The notes under the pieces are model-generated. The model did no database searches, was not told the origin of the DNA, and worked only from the letters and a program-made list of their open reading frames with translations. A DNA stretch of 64,000 bases from a virus (taxonomy: Duplodnaviria > Caudoviricetes): positions 96,001-160,000 of the IMG/VR virus record IMGVR_UViG_2645727757_000001; one strand, given 5' to 3'. The first letter of the stretch is position 1; each line of letters starts with the position of its first letter. This document shows, piece by piece, positions 10,627-38,074 of this stretch. Both the position numbers and the translations under genes were made by a program.

Positions 10627-10852
10627 CTCTGGCTTTCTTAATTTTTATACCTATAATTTCAGTAATAATTAAAACAGAACCTATAGAAATAGTTGCAATA
10701 GATAAAGGATCAAGTGAACTTAACTTAGAAATAGCAATAGTATCAACATTATTTAAAACTTTAATAGCTAAAGGAGCAGAAACAGCTCCAATAGCCATAC
10801 ATTTTAAACTAGTACTAGGTTTATCTTTATAATAATCAACTAATTTACTCAT
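10619..10852 (-). CDS. small membrane protein
   Basis: 77 aa with two hydrophobic segments, overlaps the FtsK start. Confidence 0.65.
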   Translation of the reverse strand: MSKLVDYYKDKPSTSLKCMAIGAVSAPLAIKVLNNVDTIAISKLSSLDPLSIATISIGSVLIITEIIGIKIKKARGE

Positions 10853-10992
10853 TATATTGATTTCCTCCTATTCTTATATTGATTATCGTCATAGATATTT
10901 ACTAACTTTCCAGTTGAATCATCTATAACATCACTTTCTACATCACTTGAATATTTATTATAAATATCATCTATATAGTATTTATTTTTCAT
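10852..10992 (-). CDS. small acidic protein (46 aa, not in ORF track)
   Basis: Fills the gap and is coupled to both neighbours; MKNKYYIDDIYNKYSSDVESDVIDDSTGKLVNIYDDNQYKNRRKSI. Confidence 0.45.
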   Translation of the reverse strand: MKNKYYIDDIYNKYSSDVESDVIDDSTGKLVNIYDDNQYKNRRKSI

Positions 10993-11248
10993 TTTTCTCT
11001 TCTCCTGCGGCTAGTATCATACTTGCAGCTCCACCACAGAATACTGTAAAGTATGCTATAGTCATTCCAATTAATGAAGGTTGAGTTGATTGTGCTACAC
11101 TTGTATTTGCTATACATTCAAGAGTTTTATTGTTAAGTTGCATAAATGCGGGTATTATTACTGGAGAAAGTATTGTTCCACCTAATAGCATATTCATTCC
11201 ATTTCTAACGCTCTTTCTATTTGAATATTTTTCTAATAAATTTGTCAT
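10982..11248 (-). CDS. small membrane protein
   Basis: 88 aa, two hydrophobic segments, similar layout to 10619..10852. Confidence 0.65.
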   Translation of the reverse strand: MTNLLEKYSNRKSVRNGMNMLLGGTILSPVIIPAFMQLNNKTLECIANTSVAQSTQPSLIGMTIAYFTVFCGGAASMILAAGEEKNEK

Positions 11249-11262
11249 TTTAAAAATCCTCC

Positions 11263-11607
11263 TTATGATAAAATATCTATAAAATCTTGACCTATAGAAA
11301 TATAAAGTTTTATTATATCTGCAACTTTAGGGAATATAGCAACTAAAAGTTTGTTATATTTAACTAAGAAATCAACAATTATTTCTTCATCTAAACTAAT
11401 AGAACAAGAATCATCATCTAAATATTCAATATCTAGATTTTCAATAACATCATCAACAAAGTTATTTAATTCTTCTTTTAAACTATTTTCATCTGTAGAA
11501 TCATCAATAGATTTGCTTAAATTAATAGAACCATCCTTTATAGAATCAAAAACCTTCATAAATTCAATACCTTCATTTTTACTAATTATAATTTTCATTA
11601 CCTTCAC
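11263..11607 (-). CDS. hypothetical acidic protein
   Basis: 114-aa ORF. Confidence 0.65.
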   Translation of the reverse strand: MKVMKIIISKNEGIEFMKVFDSIKDGSINLSKSIDDSTDENSLKEELNNFVDDVIENLDIEYLDDDSCSISLDEEIIVDFLVKYNKLLVAIFPKVADIIKLYISIGQDFIDILS

Positions 11608-11641
11608 CTCAATTAAAATTTAAATTTATAATAAAAACTTT

Positions 11642-12166
11642 TTAATAAATGAAATTTGGAACAATTTCAACGTATTTTTCTGGTTTATTGTTAGTTGCAT
11701 ATATAGAATCTCCACACCATAAACCATTTAATGGAGCATTAAAACCACAATATTCGTATCTATAATCATCATCCATAGTTGATGTAAGAAGTGGAAGAGG
11801 ATGTATAGTTAAACCATTTCTACACTTAGGACATTTAGTAAGATCAATATAATAAGCACAAGTATCATTAACAAGATATCTAAAATTATTTCCTGGGTTT
11901 TCATAGAATTCTAAATCTTTATAACTAGCTGATTCTATAAATAAATTAATACCTTTATCATTTGTGAATAATCCTTTCATAGCATAATCTCCACACCAAA
12001 TAATTTTATCCTTATACCAAGGTCCATCTTCTCCTATAAGCTCCATAACTCTGTTCATAAAAGGATTGTTTATAAAAGAGTGTTCAAAGAATTTAGTTCC
12101 ATCATCAAGATTTGATTGCATAACTTCCTTTTTAGTTAAATTTACCACTTTAAAATATTGTCCCAT
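11642..12166 (-). CDS. conserved phage hypothetical protein (MGQY..VNL..KE / G.K..EHS / HPLPLLT / G.W.GD)
   Basis: Recognisable conserved motif set, AGGAGG RBS. Confidence 0.75.
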   Translation of the reverse strand: MGQYFKVVNLTKKEVMQSNLDDGTKFFEHSFINNPFMNRVMELIGEDGPWYKDKIIWCGDYAMKGLFTNDKGINLFIESASYKDLEFYENPGNNFRYLVNDTCAYYIDLTKCPKCRNGLTIHPLPLLTSTMDDDYRYEYCGFNAPLNGLWCGDSIYATNNKPEKYVEIVPNFIY

Positions 12167-12224
12167 AAAAATATTCCCTCCTAAAAAATAAGGAAGCTAC
12201 ATAAGTAGCCTCCTAAAATTATTA

Positions 12225-12929
12225 TTATTCTATACAAGTTTTATTCAAAGTTAACATACTTACTATAGCTTTAGCTACGTGACATATTAAAGTTATACCT
12301 TTAGTTAATATTAAACCTAGTATTTCTATAACTGTAAAAGTAACATCTTTAACAGCATCTATTACAATGCCTAATGTATCACCTATTGTACCTAAAACCT
12401 TGGATGCGAAACCTTTTGCGAGTTTCTTTTGTGGTACCTTAAAGTTCTTACTAAGCTCATAAGATTTCTTTGAATAGTAACCAGATTTCATGTAATTTTG
12501 TAACTTCTCTAAGAATTTTCTTGATTTTTTGGCTTCCTCCTTAGTGATATTTGGATCTTCTTCAACCTCAATCATTTCTACTTCTTCAAGAATATCATTA
12601 ACATCTTTTTTATTTTCTTTATCGTTAATATTTTTATTTTCTTTATTCTTTGTATCTGTATTTGCTTTAACAACATCTTCTTTATTTTCCTTAACCTTAT
12701 CTTCTTTTTGTTCAACTTCTTCATCCTCTTCTGTATATGAATATTCATCTAAGGTATTTTTATCTGTAGGGTTTTTCTTAGAAGAAACTTTCTTTTCTTT
12801 ACCTCCTTCATCCATTACTAGATTTGTAGATTCAACATTGACATATTCAGAATCGGATGATACAACTTCTGTAGTTGAAGTAATATCATCTTCGCCTAAA
12901 TCAACAACATTGTCTAATTTAATCTTCAT
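12225..12929 (-). CDS. acidic protein with amphipathic/hydrophobic C-terminus
   Basis: 234-aa ORF; hairpins on both sides. Confidence 0.7.
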   Translation of the reverse strand: MKIKLDNVVDLGEDDITSTTEVVSSDSEYVNVESTNLVMDEGGKEKKVSSKKNPTDKNTLDEYSYTEEDEEVEQKEDKVKENKEDVVKANTDTKNKENKNINDKENKKDVNDILEEVEMIEVEEDPNITKEEAKKSRKFLEKLQNYMKSGYYSKKSYELSKNFKVPQKKLAKGFASKVLGTIGDTLGIVIDAVKDVTFTVIEILGLILTKGITLICHVAKAIVSMLTLNKTCIE

Positions 12930-13400: not shown

Positions 13401-14417
13401 TTATTCTTCTGAATCATCTTTTGTATCAAAACCTTCAAATGTTACTTTTGCGGCTCTTTCATATGCTAAGGCATTTGAGAATTGTGGATTTTTCTCTACA
13501 ATAATATCCTCTTGGTCAATTCCATTAGCTTCCATTACATAAGGTTTAAGAAGTGCAGCACAACCACCTATAAGATATAATTTATCTGCCATTAAGTCAA
13601 AATTATTCTTTTCAAGTTCTGCTTTTATTCTATTAACAAAGTCTAGTAATATATTATCTACATCTTTTGATATATCAATAGTTCCTTGACCAATTCTTTT
13701 GAATTTCTTGTTTAATAAAAGTTTAACAGCATCATCTGTAGTCACATTTCTAAACTTATGTTTATTTGTTAAAATAGTCTTGAAATTTGTAAGTAAAGCT
13801 TCAAAACCCAAGTCATTAAAAGTAAATACATTTCCATTCTTATAGAACTTTCCGTCTATAAGTTCCCATTTACCTGCATCAAAAGTACCTCCACCAAAGT
13901 CATATACAATACAACAAGTATTTTCTTTAGAGATTATTGCAGATTGTGGTTCGACTATGGCATCCTCTACTGTTAAGGCATATTGTATTCCATCTAGTTC
14001 AACAGGCATATTTTTGATTTTTAATGCTGATTGTCTACATTCTTCTTTACAATCATCAAATTGCTCTAATGGTGTACCAAGACCAATTTTAGCTCTTATG
14101 TCTATAGGCATATCTCTTAATGTTTTTTTAGGATTATCTTTTAAAAATTTCTTTTGTGCTGATCTTATTATAGCTGTACAAAGAGTAGCAGTATAAATAT
14201 CTTTTTCGTATTTTGTAGGTCCTGTAAATGAAGAACCTTCTTCATCACCTACTTTATATTCCTTACCGTCTATAATTACATCATAGCTGTTTCTTATATG
14301 GCTTGTACCATATCTGTTTGACACATAAGACAGAAATCTAACACCTCTTGATGTTTTAGTATAAGCGTTACCAATATCAACGCCTAAAATGATTCTAAAG
14401 ATTTTTTTTGCTCCCAT
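13401..14417 (-). CDS. parM: ParM/StbA-family actin-like ATPase (plasmid partition)
   Basis: Phosphate-1 GVDIGNAYTK, LGTP, EPQS, phosphate-2 DFGGGT, adenosine IGGCA, PQFSNA. Confidence 0.9.
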   Translation of the reverse strand: MGAKKIFRIILGVDIGNAYTKTSRGVRFLSYVSNRYGTSHIRNSYDVIIDGKEYKVGDEEGSSFTGPTKYEKDIYTATLCTAIIRSAQKKFLKDNPKKTLRDMPIDIRAKIGLGTPLEQFDDCKEECRQSALKIKNMPVELDGIQYALTVEDAIVEPQSAIISKENTCCIVYDFGGGTFDAGKWELIDGKFYKNGNVFTFNDLGFEALLTNFKTILTNKHKFRNVTTDDAVKLLLNKKFKRIGQGTIDISKDVDNILLDFVNRIKAELEKNNFDLMADKLYLIGGCAALLKPYVMEANGIDQEDIIVEKNPQFSNALAYERAAKVTFEGFDTKDDSEE

Positions 14418-19281: not shown

Positions 19282-19488
19282 TTAGTAAAAAGTATTTTCC
19301 CTTAATCGCTACATCCGAAAATTTATTCTTTCGGGATATGCCCTTGGTCTTAACTTAACCTCGTCGTCACCGCTGCGCTCTGCGCTTCGGGCGGGGCCCT
19401 GCACTCCGCTCCGACTCGGTACGTACGACCTTCGGTCATACCCTACAGAATAAATTTCTGCGTAGCGATAAGGGAATGCTGTTAACTA
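19282..19488 (-). repeat. GC-rich structured element, copy 1 (ssi/sso-like); core 19330-19445
   Basis: Core is the reverse complement of 34457-34572 (about 15 mismatches in 116 nt by eye); enclosed by inverted arms tcccttaatcgctac/gtagcgataaggga and aatttattct/agaataaatt. Confidence 0.85.
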
Positions 19489-22779: not shown

Positions 22780-25700
22780 TTAATCTTCAAATTCAAATTC
22801 AAATTCAAATTCTTCACTTGATAAATCATCAAGAACTTCTATTCCATCTAGTTCATCAAAGTTATCATTTAGGCTATCAATTACTTCACAGTCTATAACT
22901 TCTAGTGAATCATCAAATGATTCTTCTACTACTGAACTTGTATCAAAAGTGAATTCAGCATTATCCTCTTCAATTACTTCAAATCCTTCTGTTATTTCTT
23001 CTTCGTAATTTAATAGGTCTATTCCGTCATATTCTACAACGTCACTCATTTTAACTTTATCTTCAACTTTAATAGTTTCTTCATCTGAAATTTCTCTTAC
23101 AGCTTTAACTCTTATATCTATATTGTTTCTGTAAGCTAATTCTTCCTTTTCATCAGTCCATTCGATAACGTTGTTATTTATTTGATAATCATTAGGAATA
23201 TAATGCATATCACTTTCGCTAAAGTCAGCTTTAAATACTAAACCGTTTGCAGAATTTACATCGTTTAATCCGTAGCTACCAACCATCATTAATGGTTTCT
23301 TATCTACTACTACCCAAAGACCATCATTACATCTTTGTACTGTAAATTCTCCTTTAGCTTGTATAGTTCTTATAGATTCTGATACAGATTCTCCATCTGT
23401 TGAGTATACTAATGTCATAAATTCATTAGTATTTGTTGCTTTCGCAACAACTCTATTTTGCGCTGCCGCGCAAATTCTAGGAACTCTAATAATCTTAGAA
23501 TCTTCAACTTCAATTACATCATATTTTCCAGGTCTTAAATCAGTAGTTTCTACGAATTTACCATTTATGAATAATGCACCAACATTATTTATAACAACTG
23601 ATTTTACTTCTTCATCTGTCTTTGGTAATCTGTATAAATCACTACCTTTAGTACATTCTCTTAATAAATCTAATAGTTCATTTCTGAATACATTCCATAC
23701 AAATCCTCTAGATTTTGTATTGTCATTATTAGGTCTTATATAACATACTTCATAAGCTGTAGCTACTACTGTATTTAATTTACTAATACTACCATTAACG
23801 TATGATAATAATGCATTTCTGTATTCATTGTAGATAGATTCTATCTTTTCCCAAGATTCTTTTCTTACTTTTTCTACTTCTTCTTGTGTCATTTCATCAT
23901 CTATTGTATATAGTGAACGAACATCTATTATACGTTCTCTGCAAAGCTTTTCCATTTTAGCTATTCTTGGTTTTATAGAAGCGTGTTCATCTTTATCAAC
24001 AACTTTTAATAATTTATATACTAAAGTTGTATCAGTAGCTACCTTTTTAGTTAGTATTTCTCTAATTCTAGCTTTACTATATTTGTATAAGTTTGTCATT
24101 GGAGAATCAGATTCTTTTAATATTCTTTCATCATCTATATATACATCACCACATTTAGCTATGAAATATTCTGAATTTTTCTTGAATTGTTTCTTTGCAA
24201 GTAACCATTCTGGTCTTACTTTCATATTAGCATATGCAGGAATAACTACTTCTTCACCAGTCTTTTGTTTATCTATATCCCATCCTTGGATAAATCTTAA
24301 TTTCTTTAATACATCAGATACTCTGTGTTTTCTTCCTGTCTTGTCTATATAAGTTGTACATCCACTATTTAATAAATCAGTAAATGTTGTAGCAACGTCA
24401 GTAATAAATCCTAATTGTGATCCTTCCATAGAATCTCTGTAGAAGCTCCTTAAAATATCCTCATTAATATCACTAACAGGAGCTTTGTGTTTAAGGTTAT
24501 CATTTATAACATAGTCTTTATTATTAAAGAATTTAATAACTCTTTCATCTCTAATACAGTTAGCATGGTCACCATCAACGTCTGCTCCACCAAGAGAAGG
24601 TAATATATCATCGAATGGATTTAAGACCATTAAGTCTTCTAAATACCAAAGACGGTCATTTTTGCAAGTAGTTATCTTTCTAGCTTCACTCTTATCTATT
24701 AAAGGATTTCTAGTTAAAACAACTTCTCCTTCTATATTGTTAAGATAGAACTCTCCAGATTGTAAACAACCAAATCTATCAGTAAGATATAATGGGTCAA
24801 CTACTAGGAAATTATAATCTCCTTCAACTTGGATTCTACCAAATGCAACTTCATATAGGTAATTACCTACAAGTTTTCTTAATTTAGAATTGATATATTC
24901 ATCTTTTAGTATTTCATCTGACGCTTCTAATGCCTCTGTTAATACACTTACTAGATGTTTTTCTTCATAATCAAGGTTGTATTCACTATTAGTATCTTTA
25001 ACTAAACCTAAGAAAGTTTTAGCAGCTACAGGATTAGATAATATATTATCTTTAACTTTACTAAATTCAGTTTCAGCAAGTTCAATTAAGTTCTTAGAAT
25101 CTATGTCACTAGCACCTATTGCTTGATAATTTAGATAAGATTTTCCTGTCTTTTTGTGGTTTAGTGATACTACAGAGAATTCTAGTTTAGAACGTCCAGT
25201 TTCATCTCTAAAAGCATCACTATCGTACTTTCTTACGCTTTCTGGCATAAGAATATCGTAATCAGCATATTCTGGAACTCTCTTGTTAAAGTCGTCCATT
25301 ACAACTATACCTTTATCTCCACCGTGTCTAAATTGAATTATTCTTTGTACCTTTTTGAAAATCTTTCTTAATCTTGAATTACCATCTATAGCTATCTTTA
25401 AAGTTGCTAAATTTAAATCTTTATATGCTTCTAAGAAGTAATCTAATTCAGCTTTACTCATTAATCCTAAATCCTCTGTAGCTTTAGCTAAAAATTCAAC
25501 TGTAGCAGATGCTTGACCATCACAAGCTGTATTACAGATATAGTTATCTCTAATGAATTTAGGGATTAATTTTTCACATAAATAGCCATCTGGTAACATG
25601 AATCTATTTAATTTAGATTTTAAATCATAATTTCCAGTTTCAGTTTTCTTTAATATAACATCACCAAATGGTTTTATTATTTCCTCTGGAATTATGCAAG

Positions 25701-26964
25701 TAGATTCAGCTATTTCAACGTTATCTTTAATAACTTTAATCATAGGTTTTAGTGAAGTTGATTTTGAGTTAGTAGCAGCTAGAGCTTTACGTCCATCATA
25801 TTTACTAACATTACATTTACCATTTTCATCTAATATAGCACTAGGATCACCGCATAATAGTCTATTAGCAACAGTTGTCCATTTTTCTGATGAATAAGTT
25901 ATTCTACTTTGTCTAGCTTGTGAGAAACTTCTAGAACAAGGATTAAAATGTCTATTAAGTTCTTCATCGTAATATCCTTCCATTATAATGAATTTTACTT
26001 TTTCTAAAAGTATTTCTTTTGATTCTTCAAAGCAAGTCTTTCTTTCAGCTTTAGATAAATCCTTATATACGTATCCTCTTGATTTAATATTATCCATTAC
26101 CATTCTATTAGTTACACTTCCATTGAAAGTTGAGAAGTTGTATAGTTGATATTGAACTGTTCCATCTTCTAAAGTAACCTTAGAACCAAATTCTCTAGCT
26201 AATCTTGATTCAGATATTTTTTCTTTACATTTAGCTTCTTTAGGTAATACATATTTTCCGTTTTTGAATACTATATCATCAATAGTAAACATCTTAGTGT
26301 GATATTGGTTTTTCTTAATCCTAGGTCTGTTTATATAGTATTCAGCTAATGATTTAATGCTATCTAATTCGATGTAGTTCATTAATCTTACAGCTTCGCT
26401 ATTGAATATGAATATATCGTTATTTGCCCCGTATAGGGAATCTTCTGTGTCTACTTCGACTGATTCTCTTATGAACTTTTTATCGAATGTTACACCATCA
26501 ACGTATCTTGCCATTTTCTTAAAGTTTATGGCAGTAACAACTGAACAACCTTCTACATATTCACTATCTTCATTTGGTACAACTGTTCCAAAGATTTTCT
26601 TTATTAATTTATAATCATCAGTATTAGTTATTTTGATTATATTACCTTCGTTCTTTAATATTAAGAAACCTTCAACTGTTCCTTCGATTATTCCTCTCTT
26701 GTATTTTCTAACTAGTGAAGGTCTTTTTCCAGAGTACTTTTTAGTAACTAAACCGCCTTGTGGTAATACAGTTATACCGTTGCTTATTTTATAGTTAACT
26801 GTATTTTGAGAAGAGCTTAAAAGAGATTTGTTCAATAACATACTATTGAATCTTTCCATTAAAGCATTAATCATTGTTTCCTTAGTATTAGTAGCATCCA
26901 TACCTGTTAATGAACATAATTCTTCCTTGTTTAATCTCTTTAATAAATTTTCTAATTTTTTCAT
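22780..26964 (-). CDS. YonO-like single-subunit two-barrel RNA polymerase (cellular RdRP-related, probably DNA-dependent)
   Basis: About 1400 aa; DG, QFRHGGDKG, TRNP, catalytic GGADVDGD and DKQKTG motifs; likely start is ATG 26964 after AGGAG. Confidence 0.9.
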   Translation of the reverse strand: MKKLENLLKRLNKEELCSLTGMDATNTKETMINALMERFNSMLLNKSLLSSSQNTVNYKISNGITVLPQGGLVTKKYSGKRPSLVRKYKRGIIEGTVEGFLILKNEGNIIKITNTDDYKLIKKIFGTVVPNEDSEYVEGCSVVTAINFKKMARYVDGVTFDKKFIRESVEVDTEDSLYGANNDIFIFNSEAVRLMNYIELDSIKSLAEYYINRPRIKKNQYHTKMFTIDDIVFKNGKYVLPKEAKCKEKISESRLAREFGSKVTLEDGTVQYQLYNFSTFNGSVTNRMVMDNIKSRGYVYKDLSKAERKTCFEESKEILLEKVKFIIMEGYYDEELNRHFNPCSRSFSQARQSRITYSSEKWTTVANRLLCGDPSAILDENGKCNVSKYDGRKALAATNSKSTSLKPMIKVIKDNVEIAESTCIIPEEIIKPFGDVILKKTETGNYDLKSKLNRFMLPDGYLCEKLIPKFIRDNYICNTACDGQASATVEFLAKATEDLGLMSKAELDYFLEAYKDLNLATLKIAIDGNSRLRKIFKKVQRIIQFRHGGDKGIVVMDDFNKRVPEYADYDILMPESVRKYDSDAFRDETGRSKLEFSVVSLNHKKTGKSYLNYQAIGASDIDSKNLIELAETEFSKVKDNILSNPVAAKTFLGLVKDTNSEYNLDYEEKHLVSVLTEALEASDEILKDEYINSKLRKLVGNYLYEVAFGRIQVEGDYNFLVVDPLYLTDRFGCLQSGEFYLNNIEGEVVLTRNPLIDKSEARKITTCKNDRLWYLEDLMVLNPFDDILPSLGGADVDGDHANCIRDERVIKFFNNKDYVINDNLKHKAPVSDINEDILRSFYRDSMEGSQLGFITDVATTFTDLLNSGCTTYIDKTGRKHRVSDVLKKLRFIQGWDIDKQKTGEEVVIPAYANMKVRPEWLLAKKQFKKNSEYFIAKCGDVYIDDERILKESDSPMTNLYKYSKARIREILTKKVATDTTLVYKLLKVVDKDEHASIKPRIAKMEKLCRERIIDVRSLYTIDDEMTQEEVEKVRKESWEKIESIYNEYRNALLSYVNGSISKLNTVVATAYEVCYIRPNNDNTKSRGFVWNVFRNELLDLLRECTKGSDLYRLPKTDEEVKSVVINNVGALFINGKFVETTDLRPGKYDVIEVEDSKIIRVPRICAAAQNRVVAKATNTNEFMTLVYSTDGESVSESIRTIQAKGEFTVQRCNDGLWVVVDKKPLMMVGSYGLNDVNSANGLVFKADFSESDMHYIPNDYQINNNVIEWTDEKEELAYRNNIDIRVKAVREISDEETIKVEDKVKMSDVVEYDGIDLLNYEEEITEGFEVIEEDNAEFTFDTSSVVEESFDDSLEVIDCEVIDSLNDNFDELDGIEVLDDLSSEEFEFEFEFED

Positions 26965-27068
26965 AATTTTAACACTCCTTTTATTCAAATCATAATTTTT
27001 ATAAAGCACTTAGTAATAAAGCAATAAAAAAGAGGAAGCCAATTTTTTTGACTTCCACTTAGTAAAAC

Positions 27069-29190: not shown

Positions 29191-29457
29191 ATGGCAATTA
29201 AAATGGTAGTTGATGAAATAAGGCGTTTAAGCCAAGAAGAAGGCTTAAACGATTTGGAAATAGCCAAGATACTAGGATGCTCCCAGTCAACTGTGAGCCG
29301 AGCGAGATCTTCTAACAATATACCAAGGTATAATGTTAGAAATCGAAAGGATAAGAGCTATGTATGTCTTTCCTGCAATAAAGAAATCTTTATAGCACGA
29401 AAGGAAAAAGTTAAGCTTTATTGTCCTGAATGTAAAGAAAAAAGGCAGAAAAAATAG
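29191..29457 (+). CDS. HTH + zinc-ribbon DNA-binding protein
   Basis: LNDLEIAKILGCSQSTVSR HTH; CLSC...YCPEC. Confidence 0.8.
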   Translation: MAIKMVVDEIRRLSQEEGLNDLEIAKILGCSQSTVSRARSSNNIPRYNVRNRKDKSYVCLSCNKEIFIARKEKVKLYCPECKEKRQKK

Positions 29458-29473: not shown

Positions 29474-29502
29474 GGCCCCTGGCTAAAAATAGCCAAGGGC
29501 CG
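29474..29502. terminator. intrinsic terminator-like hairpin
   Basis: ggcccctggcta-aaaa-tagccaagggcc between convergent genes. Confidence 0.55.
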
Positions 29503-29697
29503 TGTTATAAAATAAAAAAGGTAAAATAGTAATGTAATATATTTAAAAGAGGAAAGCCGAGTTAAAAACTCGACTACAACTCTACAATAACACTTTTCTA
29601 AGTAGATTCCATAAATATTCTCGAAGTAAATGGAGGAGCCATGAGTAAGGTCCCCAAAAGTATTTTATCTTATTTTTACAATTTTGTAAATAATTTT

Positions 29698-30723
29698 TTA
29701 AGTAATATATTTATTTTTATAAGAGGAATTTTCAACCTTGCTTCTAATTGCATCGCTACAATCAAGTAGAATTTGTATGGCCATCTTGCTATAAATAATA
29801 ACAACAAATGGTTTCTTATAATATGCTTTTATTACATATCTACGCATTAGGTAATCACCTATAAATTCCATTACTATTTTGTCTTTGCATGATATTGTTA
29901 ATCCCATTCTTGTAATATTAGCTGATTTTTCAAAAATCCCTTCAATAAAAGCATCTTGGTACTCTATTGGTATATTTAAGCCTTTGTTCGTAATGAAAGA
30001 TTTAAAATCATTTATCAAATTAACGTCCCTTGATTTCATTAAATATGATGTTTGTCCCGATTTTATAATTGTTGGTTTAATTAAAAATACTTCATCAACA
30101 ATTAACTCTAATAATTCCACTTGCTTTATAGGTAAAGTAAATGTTATTTCATATTTGTTTACAGCTACATTTTTTATATTGTAAGTAGAAAACATTACAC
30201 CTAAAATATAAGCCTTGCTATTGTCAAGTTTATTAAAATATCCTATTTTATAAGGTGCTTTAACTGAATTTAAAAGTGTTCTAATTTTTTTATGATGTAG
30301 TATTCTTTCTACTTTTCTATTACTTAAATTTACCTCTTTAGCTATATCTGGAACTTTTTTACCACCAATATAATCATTAACTATAATATTAACTATATTT
30401 TTATCAAGTTCATCAATAAATAAAAGTTCTTTTTTTCTTGAATTAATTATTGTATTAATAGTTGAATATGATAATCCATATCTTTCTGCTATTTTTCTTG
30501 TTGCACACCCATCTAAATATTCTTTATATATTTTATCTTTTTCCTTTTCGGAAGCTCTTCTAAACTTCCCATTAGCTACTTTATCGCCTAAATTTCTTTT
30601 TATAGTTTCAGCAGAAACCTCATAAAGTTCTCCAATTTCTTTGAGGCTCATTCCAGATTCATACATATTTTTTATAGTTTCTATATCTTCAAATGATATT
30701 TTCCTTTTTCCCATGTTCCTCAC
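29698..30723 (-). CDS. triple-HTH + degenerate LAGLIDADG protein (paralog 4)
   Basis: Three HTH repeats; YFNKLDNSKAYILGVMFST and FIEGIFEKSA in place of the active motifs. Confidence 0.8.
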   Translation of the reverse strand: MRNMGKRKISFEDIETIKNMYESGMSLKEIGELYEVSAETIKRNLGDKVANGKFRRASEKEKDKIYKEYLDGCATRKIAERYGLSYSTINTIINSRKKELLFIDELDKNIVNIIVNDYIGGKKVPDIAKEVNLSNRKVERILHHKKIRTLLNSVKAPYKIGYFNKLDNSKAYILGVMFSTYNIKNVAVNKYEITFTLPIKQVELLELIVDEVFLIKPTIIKSGQTSYLMKSRDVNLINDFKSFITNKGLNIPIEYQDAFIEGIFEKSANITRMGLTISCKDKIVMEFIGDYLMRRYVIKAYYKKPFVVIIYSKMAIQILLDCSDAIRSKVENSSYKNKYIT

Positions 30724-30724
30724 C

Positions 30725-31759
30725 TTATATGTTTAGTTTTTCATAATATTCTCTATAATTACTATTTAAAGCACGATCGATAAGTTCTGGATGCTCTCTT
30801 AATAAGCTTTCTATACTTTTTTTATTTATTACAAGAACACTATTCTTTGTTATAGTACTGTGTATTATTTCTAATTTATCAAAGTAATTTAATATACCAT
30901 TTAAATAATTTTGATCTTTAAATAGTATTCTTATTCCAGGTCTAACGATTCTTAAAGAATACATAAAGTAACCTTTAAAGAATGAATGTAAATATTTTTC
31001 TGGTATATTAATATCACCTTCCATTCCATAACTGATTAGATCATCAAGTATTTCTTTGCTATTAAATTTTGCAATAAAATTATTATCATGGCATTTATGG
31101 ATATTAATAGTTCCTACTGATGTTAATTCATCTAGCAGCTCTCTTACAACAGGAATCATTTCTTTAGTCAATGAAAAACATACACAATGTTTTCTATATG
31201 CATGTTTTGATATGCATGACATAGAAAATATTAATCCCATATTATAAGCTTTTTTATCATCTAAATTTTTAAAATAATCCGCTTTCAATACAACGCCTCG
31301 TGTATTTTCCAAGTTATTATATTGAATTATTTTATGAATAGTGCCATATGCTAATTTATATTTTTTAGCTATTTTTGCAATGGCAAGATTGTTTTTGTAA
31401 TCTTCTTTTATTCCCTCTAATATTTCATTATCTAAATTTGAAATAAATTCTGTGTGATTAGATTTAAATTTAATTGTCTGTACTATTGTTTCCATAGAAG
31501 TGTTATATTCTTTACTTAAATCTTCAACACTTTTTCCAGCTAAATAGTCTTTGTATAATCTATTTTTATCTGATATTGATAAATAATCACACCCTCTTTT
31601 TTTAATTGAGTTATTTATTCCATAGTCTTCTCTTTTTAACCAATAATATATTGTTGTTCTTGTTACATCAAACATATTAGCTATTTCAACTATAGAAAGA
31701 CCACTATCATATAAAGTCTTTATAGTTAATAAATCTTCTTCGTCTATCTTGTTACGCAT
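30725..31759 (-). CDS. triple-HTH + degenerate LAGLIDADG protein (paralog 3)
   Basis: YFKNLDDKKAYNMGLIFSM; IPEKYLHSFFKGYFMYS. Confidence 0.8.
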   Translation of the reverse strand: MRNKIDEEDLLTIKTLYDSGLSIVEIANMFDVTRTTIYYWLKREDYGINNSIKKRGCDYLSISDKNRLYKDYLAGKSVEDLSKEYNTSMETIVQTIKFKSNHTEFISNLDNEILEGIKEDYKNNLAIAKIAKKYKLAYGTIHKIIQYNNLENTRGVVLKADYFKNLDDKKAYNMGLIFSMSCISKHAYRKHCVCFSLTKEMIPVVRELLDELTSVGTINIHKCHDNNFIAKFNSKEILDDLISYGMEGDINIPEKYLHSFFKGYFMYSLRIVRPGIRILFKDQNYLNGILNYFDKLEIIHSTITKNSVLVINKKSIESLLREHPELIDRALNSNYREYYEKLNI

Positions 31760-31780
31760 TCCCTAACCTCTCCCATATTG

Positions 31781-32782
31781 TTAATTGTATAATTTAATAA
31801 AACTCTTAATGTTTTCTTCCCCTTCTATCTTTGCACATTTTGATTTTACTTTTGTTGCAACAATTCCATTTTCAGCTAAGTATTCTAATATAAAATCTTT
31901 TGTACCAGTATTTTTATATTTTATATTTACAACATCTTCTTTAATTTCACATGAATATTCCAAATAACCTTTTACAAATTGTTTTATAAGATTATTTGGA
32001 ATTTTTGGAGTACCTAAAATATCAAATTTATTTATTAAATCATCAATAAATTTTGGACTCCTTACCCTAAGATAACAAGATCTTTTGTTTGCAATAGGCT
32101 TAGGATAAGTAGTTAAATATATAGACTTTCCTATCTCGTCAAGTAAGTAACGGTATTTATTTGATACTGTCAGCACAAGCATACTTTCTTCTTTACCGTA
32201 GTCATTTTGGAATTTAAATGTTGAGTATATAATGCCTAGTATATATGCCTTGTGCTCGTCTAGGTTATCAAAATAATTTTTTACTAACCTATTTTTAGCT
32301 TCTCTTACACCAGTAAAATCTTTAGAGCCAACTTGTACAAGTATAATGTTTAATGTTTCCTCACAAATATTAAATTTTTTAGAAATATCTTTAATTGTTG
32401 CATTATTTTCATAGTCTTTTATAATGTCATCTAATACATCATTATACTTTGTTAGTGTTTTCTCTCTTAAAAATCCCTTATTCTTTCTTGCATATCTATA
32501 TATGCTAGAAATAGGAACATTGTATTTTTTAGACAACCTTTCAAATGGTATACCCTTTAAAAATTCTTTATATATTAATTCATATTTTTCTTTTTCAATC
32601 TTTCTTTGGTTTCTAATAATGTCCTTGTCATATTTTCCAATCCAATACATTATAGTTCTTCTGTCTACCTCGTACATTTTTCCTATTTCAGAAGCACTAA
32701 GACCTTCCTTGTATAGATTAACAATATTAATAGCATCATCTTCTGTTATTTTTCTATTACTTTTCACAATAAAACACCTCAA
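31781..32782 (-). CDS. triple-HTH + degenerate LAGLIDADG protein (paralog 2)
   Basis: YFDNLDEHKAYILGIIYST; FVKGYLEYS. Confidence 0.8.
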   Translation of the reverse strand: MRCFIVKSNRKITEDDAINIVNLYKEGLSASEIGKMYEVDRRTIMYWIGKYDKDIIRNQRKIEKEKYELIYKEFLKGIPFERLSKKYNVPISSIYRYARKNKGFLREKTLTKYNDVLDDIIKDYENNATIKDISKKFNICEETLNIILVQVGSKDFTGVREAKNRLVKNYFDNLDEHKAYILGIIYSTFKFQNDYGKEESMLVLTVSNKYRYLLDEIGKSIYLTTYPKPIANKRSCYLRVRSPKFIDDLINKFDILGTPKIPNNLIKQFVKGYLEYSCEIKEDVVNIKYKNTGTKDFILEYLAENGIVATKVKSKCAKIEGEENIKSFIKLYN

Positions 32783-32793
32783 TTAAATAAAAT

Positions 32794-33828
32794 TTAAGCC
32801 AGTAAATTTTTATAATATTCCTTATCCTCGCCTTTTAGTGCTCTTTCTTTTAGTATCTTAACTTTATTTAATATAAGTCTTCTAGAACCCCTTTTAGATA
32901 TGACAATTGATTTAGCTCTAATTTTGTAATCTTCTATTCCTATACCTGTAAGGTATTTTTTGAAAAATTCTAAATAAATATTATTTTTAACTGATATATA
33001 CACACAGTATCTTTCAATTCTACTTGCATACATACAATATCCATTTACGAAACTATCTAAATATTTTTCTGGTATATTAATACTTGATTCCATTCCGTAT
33101 TTAAGTAAATCTTTACTTATCTTTCCTTTTGGTAGTCTAAATTTATAACCTTTATCCTCTCCACCATTTATTGAAGGTTTACAGTTATTAAAAAGTTCTT
33201 CAACAACCTTTTCTAATAAATACTTATATTTAGCTCCAACGGAAAACATTACTACCTTTTCATTTGAATAATCTGGTGTAAATTTTGCTGTGCTAAAAAT
33301 AATTCCTAAAATTTCTGCTTTATTATTATTTAAAGTTTTAAAATAATCGTGATTAGTAACTAACTTTATAGTTGTCTTTTCTATAAGATTTAGTTCCATA
33401 AGGAAAATTTTTAATATAGGCTTTGATATCCTATATTTTTTAAGCATATCGTTAAATTCAACTTTATTATTAAAATCTTCAACTAGATTATCTTTTATTT
33501 TTTCAAACTTAGCTCTTGATTTTTCACTTATTATACCTAATTTGCAATATAATCTATATGATATTGTTAGCTTACTTAGGCTTGTGCTTCTTTCAATTTC
33601 AGATATACTGTATCCATCTCTGTACAATTCAGCAACTAATTCTTCCTCTTCTTCGATGTTAGTATTAGTATCTTTTAACGGAAAATCAAAATTGTATCTG
33701 TTAACCCAGTATATAATTTTAGATTTTGTGATATCGTACATATCTGCAACTTCTTGTAACGAATATCCGTTTTCCCTAAACTGTTTCATGCACTTTAAAT
33801 CATCAATGTCTATTTTTACATTTCCCAT
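32794..33828 (-). CDS. triple-HTH + degenerate LAGLIDADG protein (paralog 1)
   Basis: NHDYFKTLNNNKAEILGIIFST; IPEKYLDSFVNGYCMYA. Confidence 0.8.
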   Translation of the reverse strand: MGNVKIDIDDLKCMKQFRENGYSLQEVADMYDITKSKIIYWVNRYNFDFPLKDTNTNIEEEEELVAELYRDGYSISEIERSTSLSKLTISYRLYCKLGIISEKSRAKFEKIKDNLVEDFNNKVEFNDMLKKYRISKPILKIFLMELNLIEKTTIKLVTNHDYFKTLNNNKAEILGIIFSTAKFTPDYSNEKVVMFSVGAKYKYLLEKVVEELFNNCKPSINGGEDKGYKFRLPKGKISKDLLKYGMESSINIPEKYLDSFVNGYCMYASRIERYCVYISVKNNIYLEFFKKYLTGIGIEDYKIRAKSIVISKRGSRRLILNKVKILKERALKGEDKEYYKNLLA

Positions 33829-34380
33829 ATCTTTCCTCCCTAAGTATATCTTAAAACAAATATTCCACTGTATAATTTTATATATTTATCCATACAGTTC
33901 TTTTATTCCCATTACATCACAATTTTACAATATGAAAAAAAATAAGGCAAATTATTAAATAAAATAATTTGCCTTGAACTAGGAATACAACTAGGAATGC
34001 ATCATGCACTGTAATATTTTTACAGTAGGTTTTGTATATATATATTAACATTTTATTGAAAAATAGTAAATTATTTTTTTGCATAACCTTTACAACATTT
34101 ATTTCATGTTATAAAATGGAAGTGTAATATTACTTACAGGATTATTTATTGGGTTTTTTATTTTTTTAATGTATAGTGAGCCGATTTGCTTCCTTGTATA
34201 ATCTTTTCGTGATTTTTTTCCCAATAAAATTCTCCTGAAGTAATTCTTTGTGTATTGCATAATAAGTATATACAAAATATAAGCACCATCAGAAACCTAA
34301 TGTTAACGCATTGGGTTTTCTCTATTTAGTAATTAAAATAAAGAAAAAATTATTATAAAAAATGAAAAATTATAATATAC

Positions 34381-34659
34381 AAGCCAATGATGGCAATATA
34401 ATTTTATTAAAAAAACGCAGAAAAATTTTCGACTGCAAAAAATTTAAAAATTCCCATAGGGTGTGACCGCAGGTTGTGCGTACCGATGAGCCGCGGAGTG
34501 CAGGGCCCCGCCCGAAGCGCAGAGCGAAGCGGCGGCGAAGAGGTTAAGCTAAGACCAAGGGAATATCCCGAAGGGGATTTTTAATATTTTTTTGCACAAA
34601 GAAAAATTTAAACTGCGTTTTTTAAAAAATAAAATTATTATAATTGCCATTATTGGCTT
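34381..34659 (+). repeat. GC-rich structured element, copy 2 (ssi/sso-like); core 34457-34572
   Basis: Inverted homolog of 19330-19445; enclosed by nested arms aagccaatgatggcaat/attgccattattggctt, aaaacgcag/ctgcgtttt, tgcaaaaa/tttttgca, aaaattccc/gggattttt. Confidence 0.85.
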
Positions 34660-34677
34660 TTGTTTTTTAAAAAAAAG

Positions 34678-35196
34678 GTGTGGTATCTAGTGAACCTTTT
34701 TACTTATCACATGTGGTATCTAATCAACCTTTTTACTTATATTACCCTGTGTCATTGAGTACGCCAATTTTTAAAAAAATCTTTACAAATGGCTTCGTTG
34801 TCGCATTTGTGATAACTATTAAAGTAGTGGTATCTAATCAACCAGTAATGTAATCTAATACGCTTTTTAAGTTAGATTACAATGGATAGATAATGTAATC
34901 TAATGAGCTATTAGAGTTATTAGATAGTGGTATCTAATGCACCACTTTTTAAAATCAAACCTCTACAAATGGCTTATTCACTAGCATTAGTAAGAATTTT
35001 TATATAAGTAATTACCTGTGTCATTAAGTGAGCTAATATAATGTAATTGAGTAAGCTAATGTATTTTAATGATAATGTAATCGAGTAAGCTAAAATAAAA
35101 TAAAAAGTACTTATAAATGGCTATATTGCTTAATTTACAAGTACTTTTTATATATAAATTAGTAGTGGTATCTAATCAACCACTAATGTAATCGAA
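34678..35196 (+). repeat. dispersed direct repeats between the structured element and repA
   Basis: gtggtatcta(a/g)t x5, taatgtaat(c/t) x5, ctgtgtcatt x2, aaatggct x3. Confidence 0.75.
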
Positions 35197-36372
35197 TCAT
35201 CTTTTATATAATTTACTTGGATCATATTCTTCTTCGCCTAGTGCCATTTGCTCTAGTGCTTCAAAATCATAGTTCCTTTGTTCAAAATCATTAAATCTAT
35301 TATAATTATTATCGCTAATTATATAATTATTATTCCAGTCAACTTCAATAGCTTTTAATAATGCTCCTAGATAGTTTCTATCATCTATCCTTTTGCCACT
35401 AAGATATTTTTTAACTATATTAACCTTTTCTTTTATATAATCAACTACTCCTATTCCATTATCTTCGTTTTCTTTTTTATTTTCTATTGCTGTTAGTGCA
35501 GTTGTAAGTATAGTTTTTGCTTCACCAGCTTTAACTTGAATACCTATTATATTTGAAATCATACTTATTATGTATTCCTCTTCCTGCGTATGTACAACTG
35601 GATGTGTTTCATCGAAAATATCTAATTGTTTGCAATCTTTTTTTCGTATTATATATCTGAATTTAGTAACTTTTCTATTTTTCTTTTCAAGAGGAACATA
35701 TTCTAAGTTTAAGTCAGTATGATTATTAATATCTTTTATTGATGAATCTATAACACTCCTTTTAAAATCAGCAAAAGTTTTATATTCTCCATCACGTAAA
35801 TCCAATTTGAATCTATAATCATCTACATAAAAATCTCTATATCCATATTTAAGATATTGCTTACATAATTCATAAGTTCTAAAAGAATGTTTTCTCTTTA
35901 TCTTGTTAGCAAAATCATCAAAAATCATCTTTGTATATTCTGATTTAAAAACTAGCAAATCAGCAATAAGGTCAGGATGGAATTGTAACGCAATACTTTT
36001 TTTATCGTTATTATATCTGCAAGTTATAACCCATCTTTTTCTTGATACATCTAAATTTTCATTAACATAAATTATTTCTGAATCATACAGCTCTGTTGCT
36101 ATTTTTTCAAGTTCTTTATAAACATTATTGCTTTTTATATTAAATTTATTTTTGTAAGTTGCAACATCAATTTCTATAAGATCAAAAGTACTATGATTTA
36201 TCATATCCTCAACTTTTTTAATGTTTAAATTCCTATCAAGTATTATTCTTTCTAGTTTTGTCATAGCAAGATATAAAATTCTATTTTGAGCTGTAGTTAA
36301 GTTATAACATGATTCTATAAGCCTATTAGATTTATATATTGCATTGGAATAATTAAAGCTAAGTTTATCCAT
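35197..36372 (-). CDS. repA: Rep_3 (RepB/RepA) plasmid replication initiator
   Basis: KSNRLIES.YNLT..QNRIL...F.PDL...L...YT...SFRTYELCKQY...Y..F.DFKR.VI..SIKDIN.HTDL; C-terminal FNDFEQRNYDF..LE. Confidence 0.9.
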   Translation of the reverse strand: MDKLSFNYSNAIYKSNRLIESCYNLTTAQNRILYLAMTKLERIILDRNLNIKKVEDMINHSTFDLIEIDVATYKNKFNIKSNNVYKELEKIATELYDSEIIYVNENLDVSRKRWVITCRYNNDKKSIALQFHPDLIADLLVFKSEYTKMIFDDFANKIKRKHSFRTYELCKQYLKYGYRDFYVDDYRFKLDLRDGEYKTFADFKRSVIDSSIKDINNHTDLNLEYVPLEKKNRKVTKFRYIIRKKDCKQLDIFDETHPVVHTQEEEYIISMISNIIGIQVKAGEAKTILTTALTAIENKKENEDNGIGVVDYIKEKVNIVKKYLSGKRIDDRNYLGALLKAIEVDWNNNYIISDNNYNRFNDFEQRNYDFEALEQMALGEEEYDPSKLYKR

Positions 36373-36460
36373 GATTGCATATCACCTCTTATGTATTTTC
36401 AAAATGTTATCTCTTAGTTATAGAGAAATTATAGAACATATTTTAATAAAACGTAAGGGG

Positions 36461-37352
36461 ATTTTCCCAAAACATTCTTACAACTTTACCAAAATGCTCT
36501 TATAAAAAATACAATAAAACAATACATTTTCCCAAAATACTCGTACAACTCTCCCAAAATACTCTCTTAAATTTATTACAAATCAATATATTTTCCCAAA
36601 ACACTCTTATAAAAAATTATAAAATTTTGTAAAAAATCAATACATTTTCCCAAAATGCTCGTATAACTTTCCCAAAACGCTCTTACTAAAATTGCATTGA
36701 AATTTTTTACATTTCCCCAAAATGCTCGTACAACTTTCCCAAAACGCTCGTACAACTCTCCCAAAATGCTCTTACTAATTAGCAAAAATTCTAATAAAAA
36801 TCATTAAAAAAATACCTTATATAAATCCCTTAAAGCATTGATATAACTAGGTTTATAGGGTATTGTAAATATATGTAAAATAATCACTATATATAATTAT
36901 ATATATACTCTATTTAAATAAAAATAAAAGTAAATATAAATATTATTATATATAGATATATACTATAAATTTTAATAATAAATATATATAAATAGATAAA
37001 TAATATATATATAAATAATATTTAAATATATTATATATATATTTAATAATAATATATATTAATATATATAAATATATATTAATTATTATATTATTATATT
37101 ATATTATATTATTAATTATTATATTATTATATTATATTATATTATTAATTATTATATTAAATTTAATTATATGTTATATAGCAAATAAGAGTGTTTTGGG
37201 AAAACGACACTTAAAGTACGAGCGTTTTGGGAAAATTAATTATAAGTACGACTGTTTTGGGAAAACAAAAACTAAAAGAGAGTGTTTTGGGAAAATGAAA
37301 CACAAATACGAGCGTTTTGGGAAAATAAAATCTTAAAGAGAGCGTTTTGGGA
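36461..37352. repeat. iteron origin: ~10 direct iterons (36461-36775), AT-rich unwinding tract (~36890-37180), 6 inverted iterons with ~30-nt period (37186-37352)
   Basis: Unit tttcccaaaa(c/t)(g/a)ctc(g/t)ta and its reverse complement, directly upstream of repA. Confidence 0.9.
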
Positions 37353-38074
37353 ATGCATATATAAACTATAAAAATAAAACTACATCGCAGAAAGCTTTAA
37401 AATGCGTTTATAGAGGTTTTAAGTTTAATTAGACTAATTGCTCTAAATATATATTTAAAAGCTATTACAAGCTAATTTTGAGCCATATAGAACTATACAC
37501 ATAAGATAGCTTGTATATGTATTTAAATTATTATAGTGAAATATATATATTGCATAAAGAATTTGCATGATAGGTTTACAAAGCTCAAAATTGCGTTCTA
37601 AGGCTATTTAAATTTTAGACATAAAAAACTACACCAACATATCTACTCAACGCTTAGAAGTCAAAAATAAGCGTTCTATAGGTAATGCTGGTGTTTCTTT
37701 CAGTAATAATTCAATAAGGCATTATATCTTTCGATATTATGTTATGCAGATAAGATGTTTTTATGTATGGAATTTTTGAGAAATGAATTATAGACAATAA
37801 AAAAGCAAAATGCTATTATAGTAAGTAATACAACGTTATCACTATAAAGTTCCAAAAAAGTAGAAAACCACTTCTGCAAAAGTGGTTTCGAGATAAAAAA
37901 TTAAATTTAGTTGTAATGTTGTCATAACTATTGACATATGTATAAAGTTTTTTAAAAAAATTAAAAATCGTTTCTTTATTCTTAATTCTATAATGACTTT
38001 TTTACGATGTCAATATTTTGTCGAAAAATAAAATAAATAATTGATGGAGGAAGAAGTTATGGGGGAATTAAGGG

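Follow-up and report, generated by a model that had tools for sequence, protein, structure and literature searches.

We analysed a 64,000-nt window (positions 96,001 to 160,000 of IMG/VR record IMGVR_UViG_2645727757_000001) in which four consecutive genes at 29698-33828 encode proteins that combine three predicted helix-turn-helix (HTH) modules with a LAGLIDADG homing-endonuclease fold lacking both catalytic acidic residues. This 4.1-kb array is 100% identical to nucleotides 171701-175831 of pCBJ (NZ_CP006906.1), a circular molecule of 185,364 bp and 26% GC from Clostridium baratii str. Sullivan. pCBJ is a phage-plasmid, and the gene content of the window fits this; in the genome store, the record identical to pCBJ is classed as a virus with an estimated completeness of 86%. 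According to PMC8879937, strain Sullivan has a botulinum neurotoxin cluster, which that paper places on the plasmid.

The genes, designated p4, p3, p2 and p1 from first to last, lie head to tail on the minus strand with intergenic gaps of 1-26 nt (Table 1). The open reading frames (ORFs) as listed are 333-344 amino acids (aa) long, as stated in the initial annotation. Ribosome-binding sites and the RefSeq annotation favour later starts for p1 and p3, and the metagenomic orthologs are equally long; with these likely starts (giving 338 aa for p1 and 328 aa for p3) the range becomes 328-344 aa. RefSeq labels three of the genes 'helix-turn-helix domain-containing protein' and one 'hypothetical protein'. 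The paralogs align end to end. Identity to p1 is 30, 27 and 24%, and all pairs fall at 24-34% in each half, bearing out the earlier description of tandem, tightly coupled, full-length and diverged paralogs.

A single transcription unit from p4 to p1 is plausible because the gaps are short, a promoter match lies upstream, and closing hairpins and a convergent gene lie at the other end. Promoter-like matches in the region are not in excess (40, versus 45.9 in shuffled sequences), and 7 terminator-like sites were found versus 2.1 expected. In the ~540-nt leader between the promoter-like site and p4, the segment 33917-34275 (minus strand) has two short ORFs, of 55 and 58 aa, as well as a terminator-like hairpin, and may be an attenuator or a small-RNA region.

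The N-terminal ~150 residues give matches above the Pfam cut-offs to HTH_7, HTH_23, HTH_28 and HTH_38. On p1, the Pfam HTH matches lie at residues ~7-45, 60-100 and 103-145, and two AlphaFold models contain nine helices forming three tri-helical units, in agreement with the three HTH repeats initially annotated. HTH_7 and HTH_23 are matched by 28 of 30 members of the wider family described below, and the HTHs of the paralogs weakly resemble sigma-70 region 4 in Pfam. A chain of three small HTH modules also occurs in Cbp1, the CRISPR repeat-binding protein of Sulfolobales, where it reads direct repeats. However, Cbp1 has no LAGLIDADG domain, and scores against its model NF040595 are far under the cut-off of 140 bits, both for the four paralogs (19.1-46.9 bits; E 2.5e-12 for p1) and for the central family member P0015 (58.7 bits, E 5.4e-16); the resemblance is thus architectural only.

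From predicted structure and homology, the C-terminal ~185 residues are established as a monomeric, two-lobed LAGLIDADG domain. The Pfam LAGLIDADG models (PF00961, PF03161 and PF14528) match none of p2, p3 and p4 at E <= 1 and are not among the best 25 of 33 matches for p1. Similarly, no LAGLIDADG family is among the best 25 of 80 Pfam families for 30 family members, and no model in Pfam, NCBIfam or PADLOC describes the C-terminal domain of the array proteins. The scaffold that the initial annotation had deduced despite being invisible to Pfam is nevertheless recovered by several other comparisons. A profile of the four C-terminal sequences matches I-DmoI in the PDB over both motifs (E 2.7e-4), Foldseek also matches I-DmoI (E 3.4e-5), and VIA-align supports the same fold. 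The AlphaFold predicted local distance difference test score is 80-97 across the LAGLIDADG domain (for p1, the model mean is 79.7 and the C-terminal domain scores 80-95). HHalign aligns 48 family members with 24 canonical HTH-LAGLIDADG proteins (99.9% probability, E 3.5e-34, 214 columns), and the overlap takes in the last HTH and both LAGLIDADG motifs. The ESM Atlas clusters nearest to the C-terminal half carry LAGLIDADG_3 (score 0.92), and BFVD yields full-length matches to phage proteins of 320-350 aa with E-values down to 2.6e-12. PHROG family phrog_4645, 'endonuclease', is matched by p3 (2.7e-10, residues 76-325) and p4; it is not among the matches listed for p1 (best 25 of 42) or p2 (best 25 of 30). 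Array proteins and canonical phage endonucleases have in common the lead-in to motif 1, 'YF..L/I....KAY.LG'.

In I-DmoI, D21 and E117 bind metals. The residues equivalent to D21 are T, M, T and T in p1-p4, and those equivalent to E117 are S, S, S and A. Motif 1 reads LGVMFST, MGLIFSM, LGIIYST and LGIIFST, and motif 2 reads FIEGIFEKS, FFKGYFMYS, FVKGYLEYS and FVNGYCMYA. All four proteins contain the motifs quoted in the initial annotation, and the catalytic Asp is absent from both. An active-site comparison of the HHpred/AlphaFold type, which had been proposed there, likewise finds the fold kept and both metal-binding positions non-acidic. On sequence grounds, the prediction that the array proteins are nuclease-dead holds for all four, as both catalytic acidic positions are lost. 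An alignment of 48 family members has just two invariant positions, G175 and F260, and five that come close, G20, Y162, F163, G245 and G263. All seven belong to helix packing or turns and none is of the catalytic type; acidic, basic and histidine residues are absent from both sets. The lysine aligned with I-DmoI K130 (K280 of p1) is invariant in p1-p4 and is the family consensus, and the C-terminal domains are basic (isoelectric points of 8.6-9.5).

The C-terminal profile was searched exhaustively against 1.84 billion cluster representatives, yielding 711 proteins at E <= 1e-3, 31 at E <= 1e-10 and 4 at E <= 1e-30. Of 156 proteins aligned to the profile, 107 span at least 60% of its length and were retained. 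The catalytic columns of these are acidic at neither position in 41 proteins and at both in 41; 25 score as 'half', and many of these scores are alignment artefacts in which GDG is placed in insert columns. In a FastTree phylogeny (LG+gamma, 189 columns, midpoint-rooted, branch supports not inspected), a single clade of 40 cluster representatives contains all four pCBJ lineages. Apart from two fragments, its members are 324-373 aa long and their LAGLIDADG domain begins near residue 155-170; every protein of this build in the set falls within the clade. Both acidic residues are missing from 38 of the 40; in the remaining two, an E persists at one position, that of motif 1 in P0027 and that of motif 2 in P0012. 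The canonical relatives retain ADG and GYFDGDG, with D32, D123 and D125 invariant or nearly so, and have none to three HTH modules. Three other 'dead' proteins (P0043, P0132 and P0154) are shorter and nested among canonical enzymes, and look like separate losses of catalysis.

Since the pCBJ lineages interleave with metagenomic members in the tree, p1-p4 appear to be old paralogs and not recent duplicates. In the simplest history, a three-HTH endonuclease would have lost catalysis once and then radiated; both statements rest on one tree without support values. Inactivation most likely long predates pCBJ. The core of the initial annotation, nuclease-dead LAGLIDADG domains joined to three HTHs, holds in the computations, but the array is not the whole family: it is part of this older clade, which includes proteins of Bacillota megaplasmids.

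A tblastn search with P0015 located the family in four more plasmids, namely Bacillus thuringiensis Bt407 BTB_502p (502 kb), a Pontibacillus plasmid (898 kb), Clostridium perfringens pJFP838A (404 kb) and a Brevibacillus plasmid (414 kb). The family profile matches once each in BTB_502p, pJFP838A and the Brevibacillus plasmid and three times in the Pontibacillus plasmid (one match to the HTH part only), and all four megaplasmid proteins examined lack the catalytic residues. Members of the family include WP_000161921.1 of BTB_502p and WP_207530846.1 of Pontibacillus. At 9944-12449 of pJFP838A, the family gene is arranged tail to tail with an SprT-like gene, followed by a NERD-domain gene, and a DUF262 gene lies 7 kb off. 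The top ESM Atlas cluster for P0015 comprises 58 Bacillota members, 338-aa 'hypothetical proteins' with HTH families only; none of the 20 clusters looked up has a name, and word-indexed name searches were empty too. The cluster at rank 5 comprises 56 Actinomycetota proteins of 311 aa, 'putative DOD-type homing endonuclease domain-containing', with HTH_28, HTH_23 and Sigma70_r4 but none of the LAGLIDADG families of Pfam, and may represent a further lineage of degenerate HTH-LAGLIDADG proteins.

Profile searches of the viral and genome contig collections confirmed no relative, and the five loci found in JGI metagenomes all encode canonical, active-type enzymes, none of them of the dead clade. 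A tblastn search with p4 drew a blank in 50,697 phage records, and among plasmids it matched pCBJ alone; P0015 gave one weak phage match. Full-text literature searches, with subscription journals outside their coverage, brought up no paper describing a plasmid or phage family with three HTHs and a dead LAGLIDADG domain among the 12-15 entries listed for each search.

Metagenomic orthologs exist for each paralog: P0004 and P0005 for p1, P0009 for p2, P0010 (328 aa) for p3, and P0001 and P0003 for p4. The six ortholog comparisons show 67-98% identity per half (78-98% for P0001 and P0003 versus p4) and no internal indels, and length differences are confined to start codons and one truncated record. 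Neither decay nor frameshifts were seen among these full-length proteins, in keeping with the initial proposal that the genes are domesticated and not decaying, and the intact orthologs for each paralog argue that all four genes are maintained by selection.

Arrays of this kind may also exist elsewhere. The longest contig is reported as 29,429 bp for both P0003 and P0009, orthologs of p4 and p2, and as 24,287 bp for both P0001 and P0166, orthologs of p4 and p3. Among distant members, a longest contig of 19,989 bp is common to P0011, P0013, P0019 and P0029, and one of 11,042 bp to P0012, P0020 and P0039; in the tree, P0019 pairs with P0020 and P0029 with P0039, and P0011 and P0012 are neighbours. 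With co-location read from matching contig sizes, this suggests that sets of three or four paralogs recur in elements 20-35% identical to pCBJ.

WhiA is the textbook case of a homing endonuclease turned cellular DNA-binding factor. It is the closest known system by mechanism, and the phage HTH-LAGLIDADG_3 endonucleases are the closest by descent. WhiA (DUF199; PDB 3hyi, 3hyj, 8dy7 and 8dy9) and the array proteins have in common a LAGLIDADG fold minus the catalytic acidic residues. The HTH of WhiA makes the base contacts and the dead endonuclease domain contacts the backbone, WhiB and RNA polymerase (PMC10243135, PMC3384342). According to PMC3384342, K130 of I-DmoI is among the conserved basic active-site residues, WhiA has lost such residues as well as the catalytic acidic ones, and whiA is a conserved chromosomal gene of Gram-positive bacteria. 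The array proteins differ from WhiA in several respects. Their three HTHs come first and the endonuclease domain last, whereas in WhiA the endonuclease domain comes first and the single HTH last; they keep the K130-equivalent lysine, and they are plasmid- or phage-borne in four-gene arrays in place of one chromosomal gene. No WhiA family in NCBIfam, or among the Pfam matches listed, corresponds to them. Their sequence kinship is with the phage-type LAGLIDADG_3 endonucleases, which argues for an origin independent of WhiA.

The phage HTH-LAGLIDADG endonucleases (PHROG 4645; LAGLIDADG_3 with HTH_7/HTH_23) are clearly homologous to the array proteins and likewise place one to three N-terminal HTHs before a two-lobed LAGLIDADG domain. 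They have ADG and GYFDGDG, whereas the pCBJ clade is non-acidic at both positions and lies outside the Pfam LAGLIDADG models. The archaeal, monomeric I-DmoI is intron-encoded and without HTHs, and has its metal ligands where the array proteins have T/M/T/T and S/S/S/A.

The array is situated between the Rep3-type initiator gene and iterons on one side and early genes on the other (Table 1). The two iteron sets flank an AT-rich stretch, and the plasmid origin is probably located there, at 36.9-37.2 kb, because the sets are in opposite orientation and the GC skew changes sign near 37 kb, between them. Other minus-strand genes encode SSB, two FtsK-like ATPases, a partition protein of the ParM type and a 1409-aa protein matching PF05183. 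From ~41 kb, the plus strand encodes the terminase large subunit, portal, major head protein, tail sheath, tail fibre and endolysin. Direct repeats of four kinds, all in the same orientation, are clustered in the interval that separates rep from the promoter-like site ahead of the array. Motif A of this cluster has 5 matches versus 0.02 expected and is absent elsewhere in the 185-kb record. No dispersed repeated motif was found in that record; the iteron words alone reach at least five exact 13-mers.

Table 1. Coordinates of the features in the window.
Feature	Position	Strand	Details
p4, first gene of the array, 344 aa	32794-33828	minus	motifs LGIIFSTAK, FVNGYCMYASR; phrog_4645 at 1.4e-9
p3, 333 aa from TTG at 32782; likely start GTG 32767 (328 aa)	31781-32782	minus	motifs LGIIYSTFK, FVKGYLEYSCE
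p2, 344 aa	30725-31759	minus	motifs MGLIFSMSC, FFKGYFMYSLR
p1, last gene of the array, 341 aa from GTG; likely start ATG 30714 (338 aa)	29698-30723	minus	motifs LGVMFSTYN, FIEGIFEKSAN
Best sigma-70-like promoter match upstream of the array	34369-34396	minus	TTGCCA, 16 nt, TATAAT; 11/12; consensus match only
Terminator-like hairpin and T-run in the leader	33944-33975	minus	~115 nt ahead of the p4 start
Two terminator-like hairpins closing the array unit	29555-29575 and 29474-29501	minus	face the convergent gene 29191-29457
88-aa protein, HTH and C-terminal CxxC...CxxC zinc ribbon	29191-29457	plus	convergent with the array; shares hairpin terminator 29474-29501
Direct-repeat cluster, four kinds, same orientation, 520 bp	34680-35199	minus	lies between the 3' end of rep and the promoter-like site
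Repeat kinds of the cluster			A GGTTGATTAGATACCAC (17-mer, five copies); B GATTACATTA (10-mer, four); C AGCCATTTGTA (11-mer, three); D AATGACACAGG (11-mer, two)
Rep3-type initiator	35197-36372	minus	PF01051 at 7.5e-20
Rep3-type iterons TTTCCCAAAAYGCTC and complement, two sets in opposite orientation	36448-36790 and 37183-37369		flank AT-rich stretch 36.9-37.2 kb
Replication/maintenance arm: two FtsK/SpoIIIE-like ATPases; GroES-like co-chaperonin; ParM-like partition protein	5786-7363 and 9103-10626; 1872-2159; 13401-14417
1409-aa polymerase-like protein	22780-27009	minus	PF05183 (eukaryote-type RNA-dependent RNA polymerase family) at 5.2e-22; motif GGADVDGDH; 2.7 kb downstream of the array
Apparently intact LAGLIDADG gene	59784-60503	plus	LGLVAADG at 59883-59906, FIRGYIDGDG at 60150-60179; phrog_4645 'endonuclease' at 2e-34

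Two further features of the window were noted. A GC-rich element of ~125 nt at 34440-34600, flanked by long inverted AT-rich arms (34.4-34.66 kb), has an RNA-fold z-score of -4.77 versus shuffles, and a second copy (87% identity over 116 nt) lies in the opposite orientation at 19330-19445, upstream of the SSB gene. The element has no Rfam match (34200-34800 yields just two weak, chance-level matches) and could be a small RNA or a repeated cis-element. The apparently intact LAGLIDADG gene, which the initial annotation used for comparison, is real, with both catalytic motifs and a PHROG match; it is flanked by the tail sheath gene and an ORF at 60553-61152.

On balance, we think it rather probable that the array proteins are non-catalytic regulators or maintenance factors that bind long DNA sites, the product of an independent WhiA-like domestication. 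DNA binding, the regulatory role and the targets are our inference. In this model, the clade would descend from phage-type HTH-LAGLIDADG homing endonucleases, with catalysis apparently lost once, and would have spread among Bacillota mobile elements. The four deep-branching pCBJ paralogs would be expressed from one unit adjoining the Rep3 initiator and the iteron origin, and their targets would be DNA sites that are long and composite. Bases would be read by the three HTHs; the dead endonuclease domain would clasp DNA or, as in WhiA, dock another protein, and the array proteins would thereby control gene expression or upkeep of the phage-plasmid.

To compare the putative reading surfaces with the scaffold, alignment columns were grouped by structural class. 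Similarity between paralogs is lowest in the HTH recognition helices (0.22) and the saddle strands (0.20) and highest in the LAGLIDADG helices (0.46). Within ortholog groups, the recognition helices (0.94) and saddle strands (0.89) are on par with the rest. A constant scaffold with diversified specificity would be expected to look like this, and the comparison lends modest support to such an arrangement. As a guess, from adjacency and the count of four, repeat types A-D are candidate targets of the array proteins.

It should be noted that several observations weigh against this interpretation. Conservation within orthologs is near-uniform over the structural classes (0.86-0.94), and the 'diversified surface' pattern therefore rests mainly on the contrast between paralogs. 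By the precedent of WhiA, the LAGLIDADG saddle may not touch DNA at all. The match between four repeats and four proteins may be a coincidence; C and D are short motifs with few copies. The four other plasmids carry their family members as single genes amid hypothetical proteins, with no informative neighbours. Finally, a 223-nt metagenomic variant contig shows 6 synonymous versus 9 nonsynonymous changed codons, too few to estimate selection.

The alternative that survives best makes the array proteins promoter-specificity or activator subunits for the plasmid's own RNA polymerase, with one promoter class per paralog. With its PF05183 match and GGADVDGDH motif, the 1409-aa protein looks like a YonO-like RNA polymerase of the single-subunit, two-barrel type; no PHROG family matches it, and scans of the viral and genome contig collections brought up no close relatives. 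Its gene lies close to the array, the HTHs of the paralogs are weakly like sigma-70 region 4, and the dead endonuclease domain of WhiA contacts RNA polymerase, according to PMC10243135. However, none of the four family-bearing megaplasmids contains a PF05183 match (the positive control, the window's own record, scores 3.5e-24), and a tblastn-type search with the polymerase protein also found it in none of the four. The array and the polymerase gene are in separate units, with two terminator-like hairpins and a convergent gene between them, and no dispersed promoter-like repeat was found in the 185-kb record. The initial suggestion of specificity factors for a sigma-less phage RNA polymerase is thus weakened by both the distribution of the family and the transcription units, and we regard this role as unlikely. 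A link to the host RNA polymerase is conceivable, because the dead domain of WhiA docks onto RNA polymerase and a partner while its HTH reads DNA.

We consider it more improbable still that the proteins are target-site shields or homing remnants, bound to former homing sites to block rival endonucleases or to exclude competitors. Such a role would agree with descent from free-standing phage HTH-LAGLIDADG endonucleases and with long-site recognition, and an apparently intact LAGLIDADG gene is present on the same plasmid. That endonuclease, however, is not closely related to the array proteins, and the dead-domain profile misses it at E <= 0.01. Short-lived arms races would not be expected to leave an old dead state common to a whole clade, and PADLOC defence models match nothing beyond generic HTH.

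A very improbable explanation is that the proteins are RNA maturases that aid group I intron folding, like the nuclease-dead LAGLIDADG maturase bI3 (PDB 2ab5). The initial annotation described an intron-like insertion with a LAGLIDADG gene at ~59.3-60.5 kb, but an Rfam scan of the window finds no group I intron, and no other family, at the gathering threshold. bI3 is intron-encoded, binds RNA and is without HTH modules, whereas the array genes are free-standing and encode three HTH modules of the DNA type; moreover, family members occur singly in megaplasmids.

We give little credence to the idea that the proteins are still-active nucleases or nickases that bind metal by other residues. Acidic residues are scattered near motif 2 in p1 (FEKS) and p3 (LEYS), and P0027 and P0012 each keep an E at one position. 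However, p2 and p4 have no acidic residues at or near either former site, the position of the catalytic Asp is not constant among close orthologs (p1 has T, whereas P0004 and P0005 have I), and cryptic activity was rejected because no acidic residue is conserved at or near either former site, in the paralogs or in the family. The least credible explanation, that the genes are decaying, functionless copies of a homing endonuclease, starts from loss of catalytic residues being the usual first step in such decay, and was rejected in view of four open frames with ribosome-binding sites, full-length orthologs without indels, architecture and fold-defining residues kept by 40 diverged representatives, and high AlphaFold confidence.

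If the array proteins are indeed long-site DNA-binding regulators, a more specific version of this model can be put forward, which we regard as possible but doubtful. At least three diverged mobile elements would have conserved the four-gene module as a set, and its products would be 'dead meganuclease' readers, each using its HTH chain and saddle to recognise one long DNA word. By jointly decoding the four-repeat array beside the origin, they would determine copy number, partition or the change from plasmid to lytic life and back. Such a module, if real, would amount to a multi-reader control device made of protein alone and derived from a homing endonuclease along a path independent of WhiA.

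With no curated model for the family, records describe its members as 'helix-turn-helix domain-containing' or 'hypothetical', and a definition would improve the annotation of Bacillota plasmids and phages. The WhiA-type end-point would have been reached independently, from phage-type enzymes with a reversed domain order, in mobile elements and in sets of anciently diverged paralogs. If the proteins bind long specific sites, they would be natural nuclease-dead meganucleases, of interest both for the self-control of phage-plasmids and as programmable DNA-binding scaffolds.

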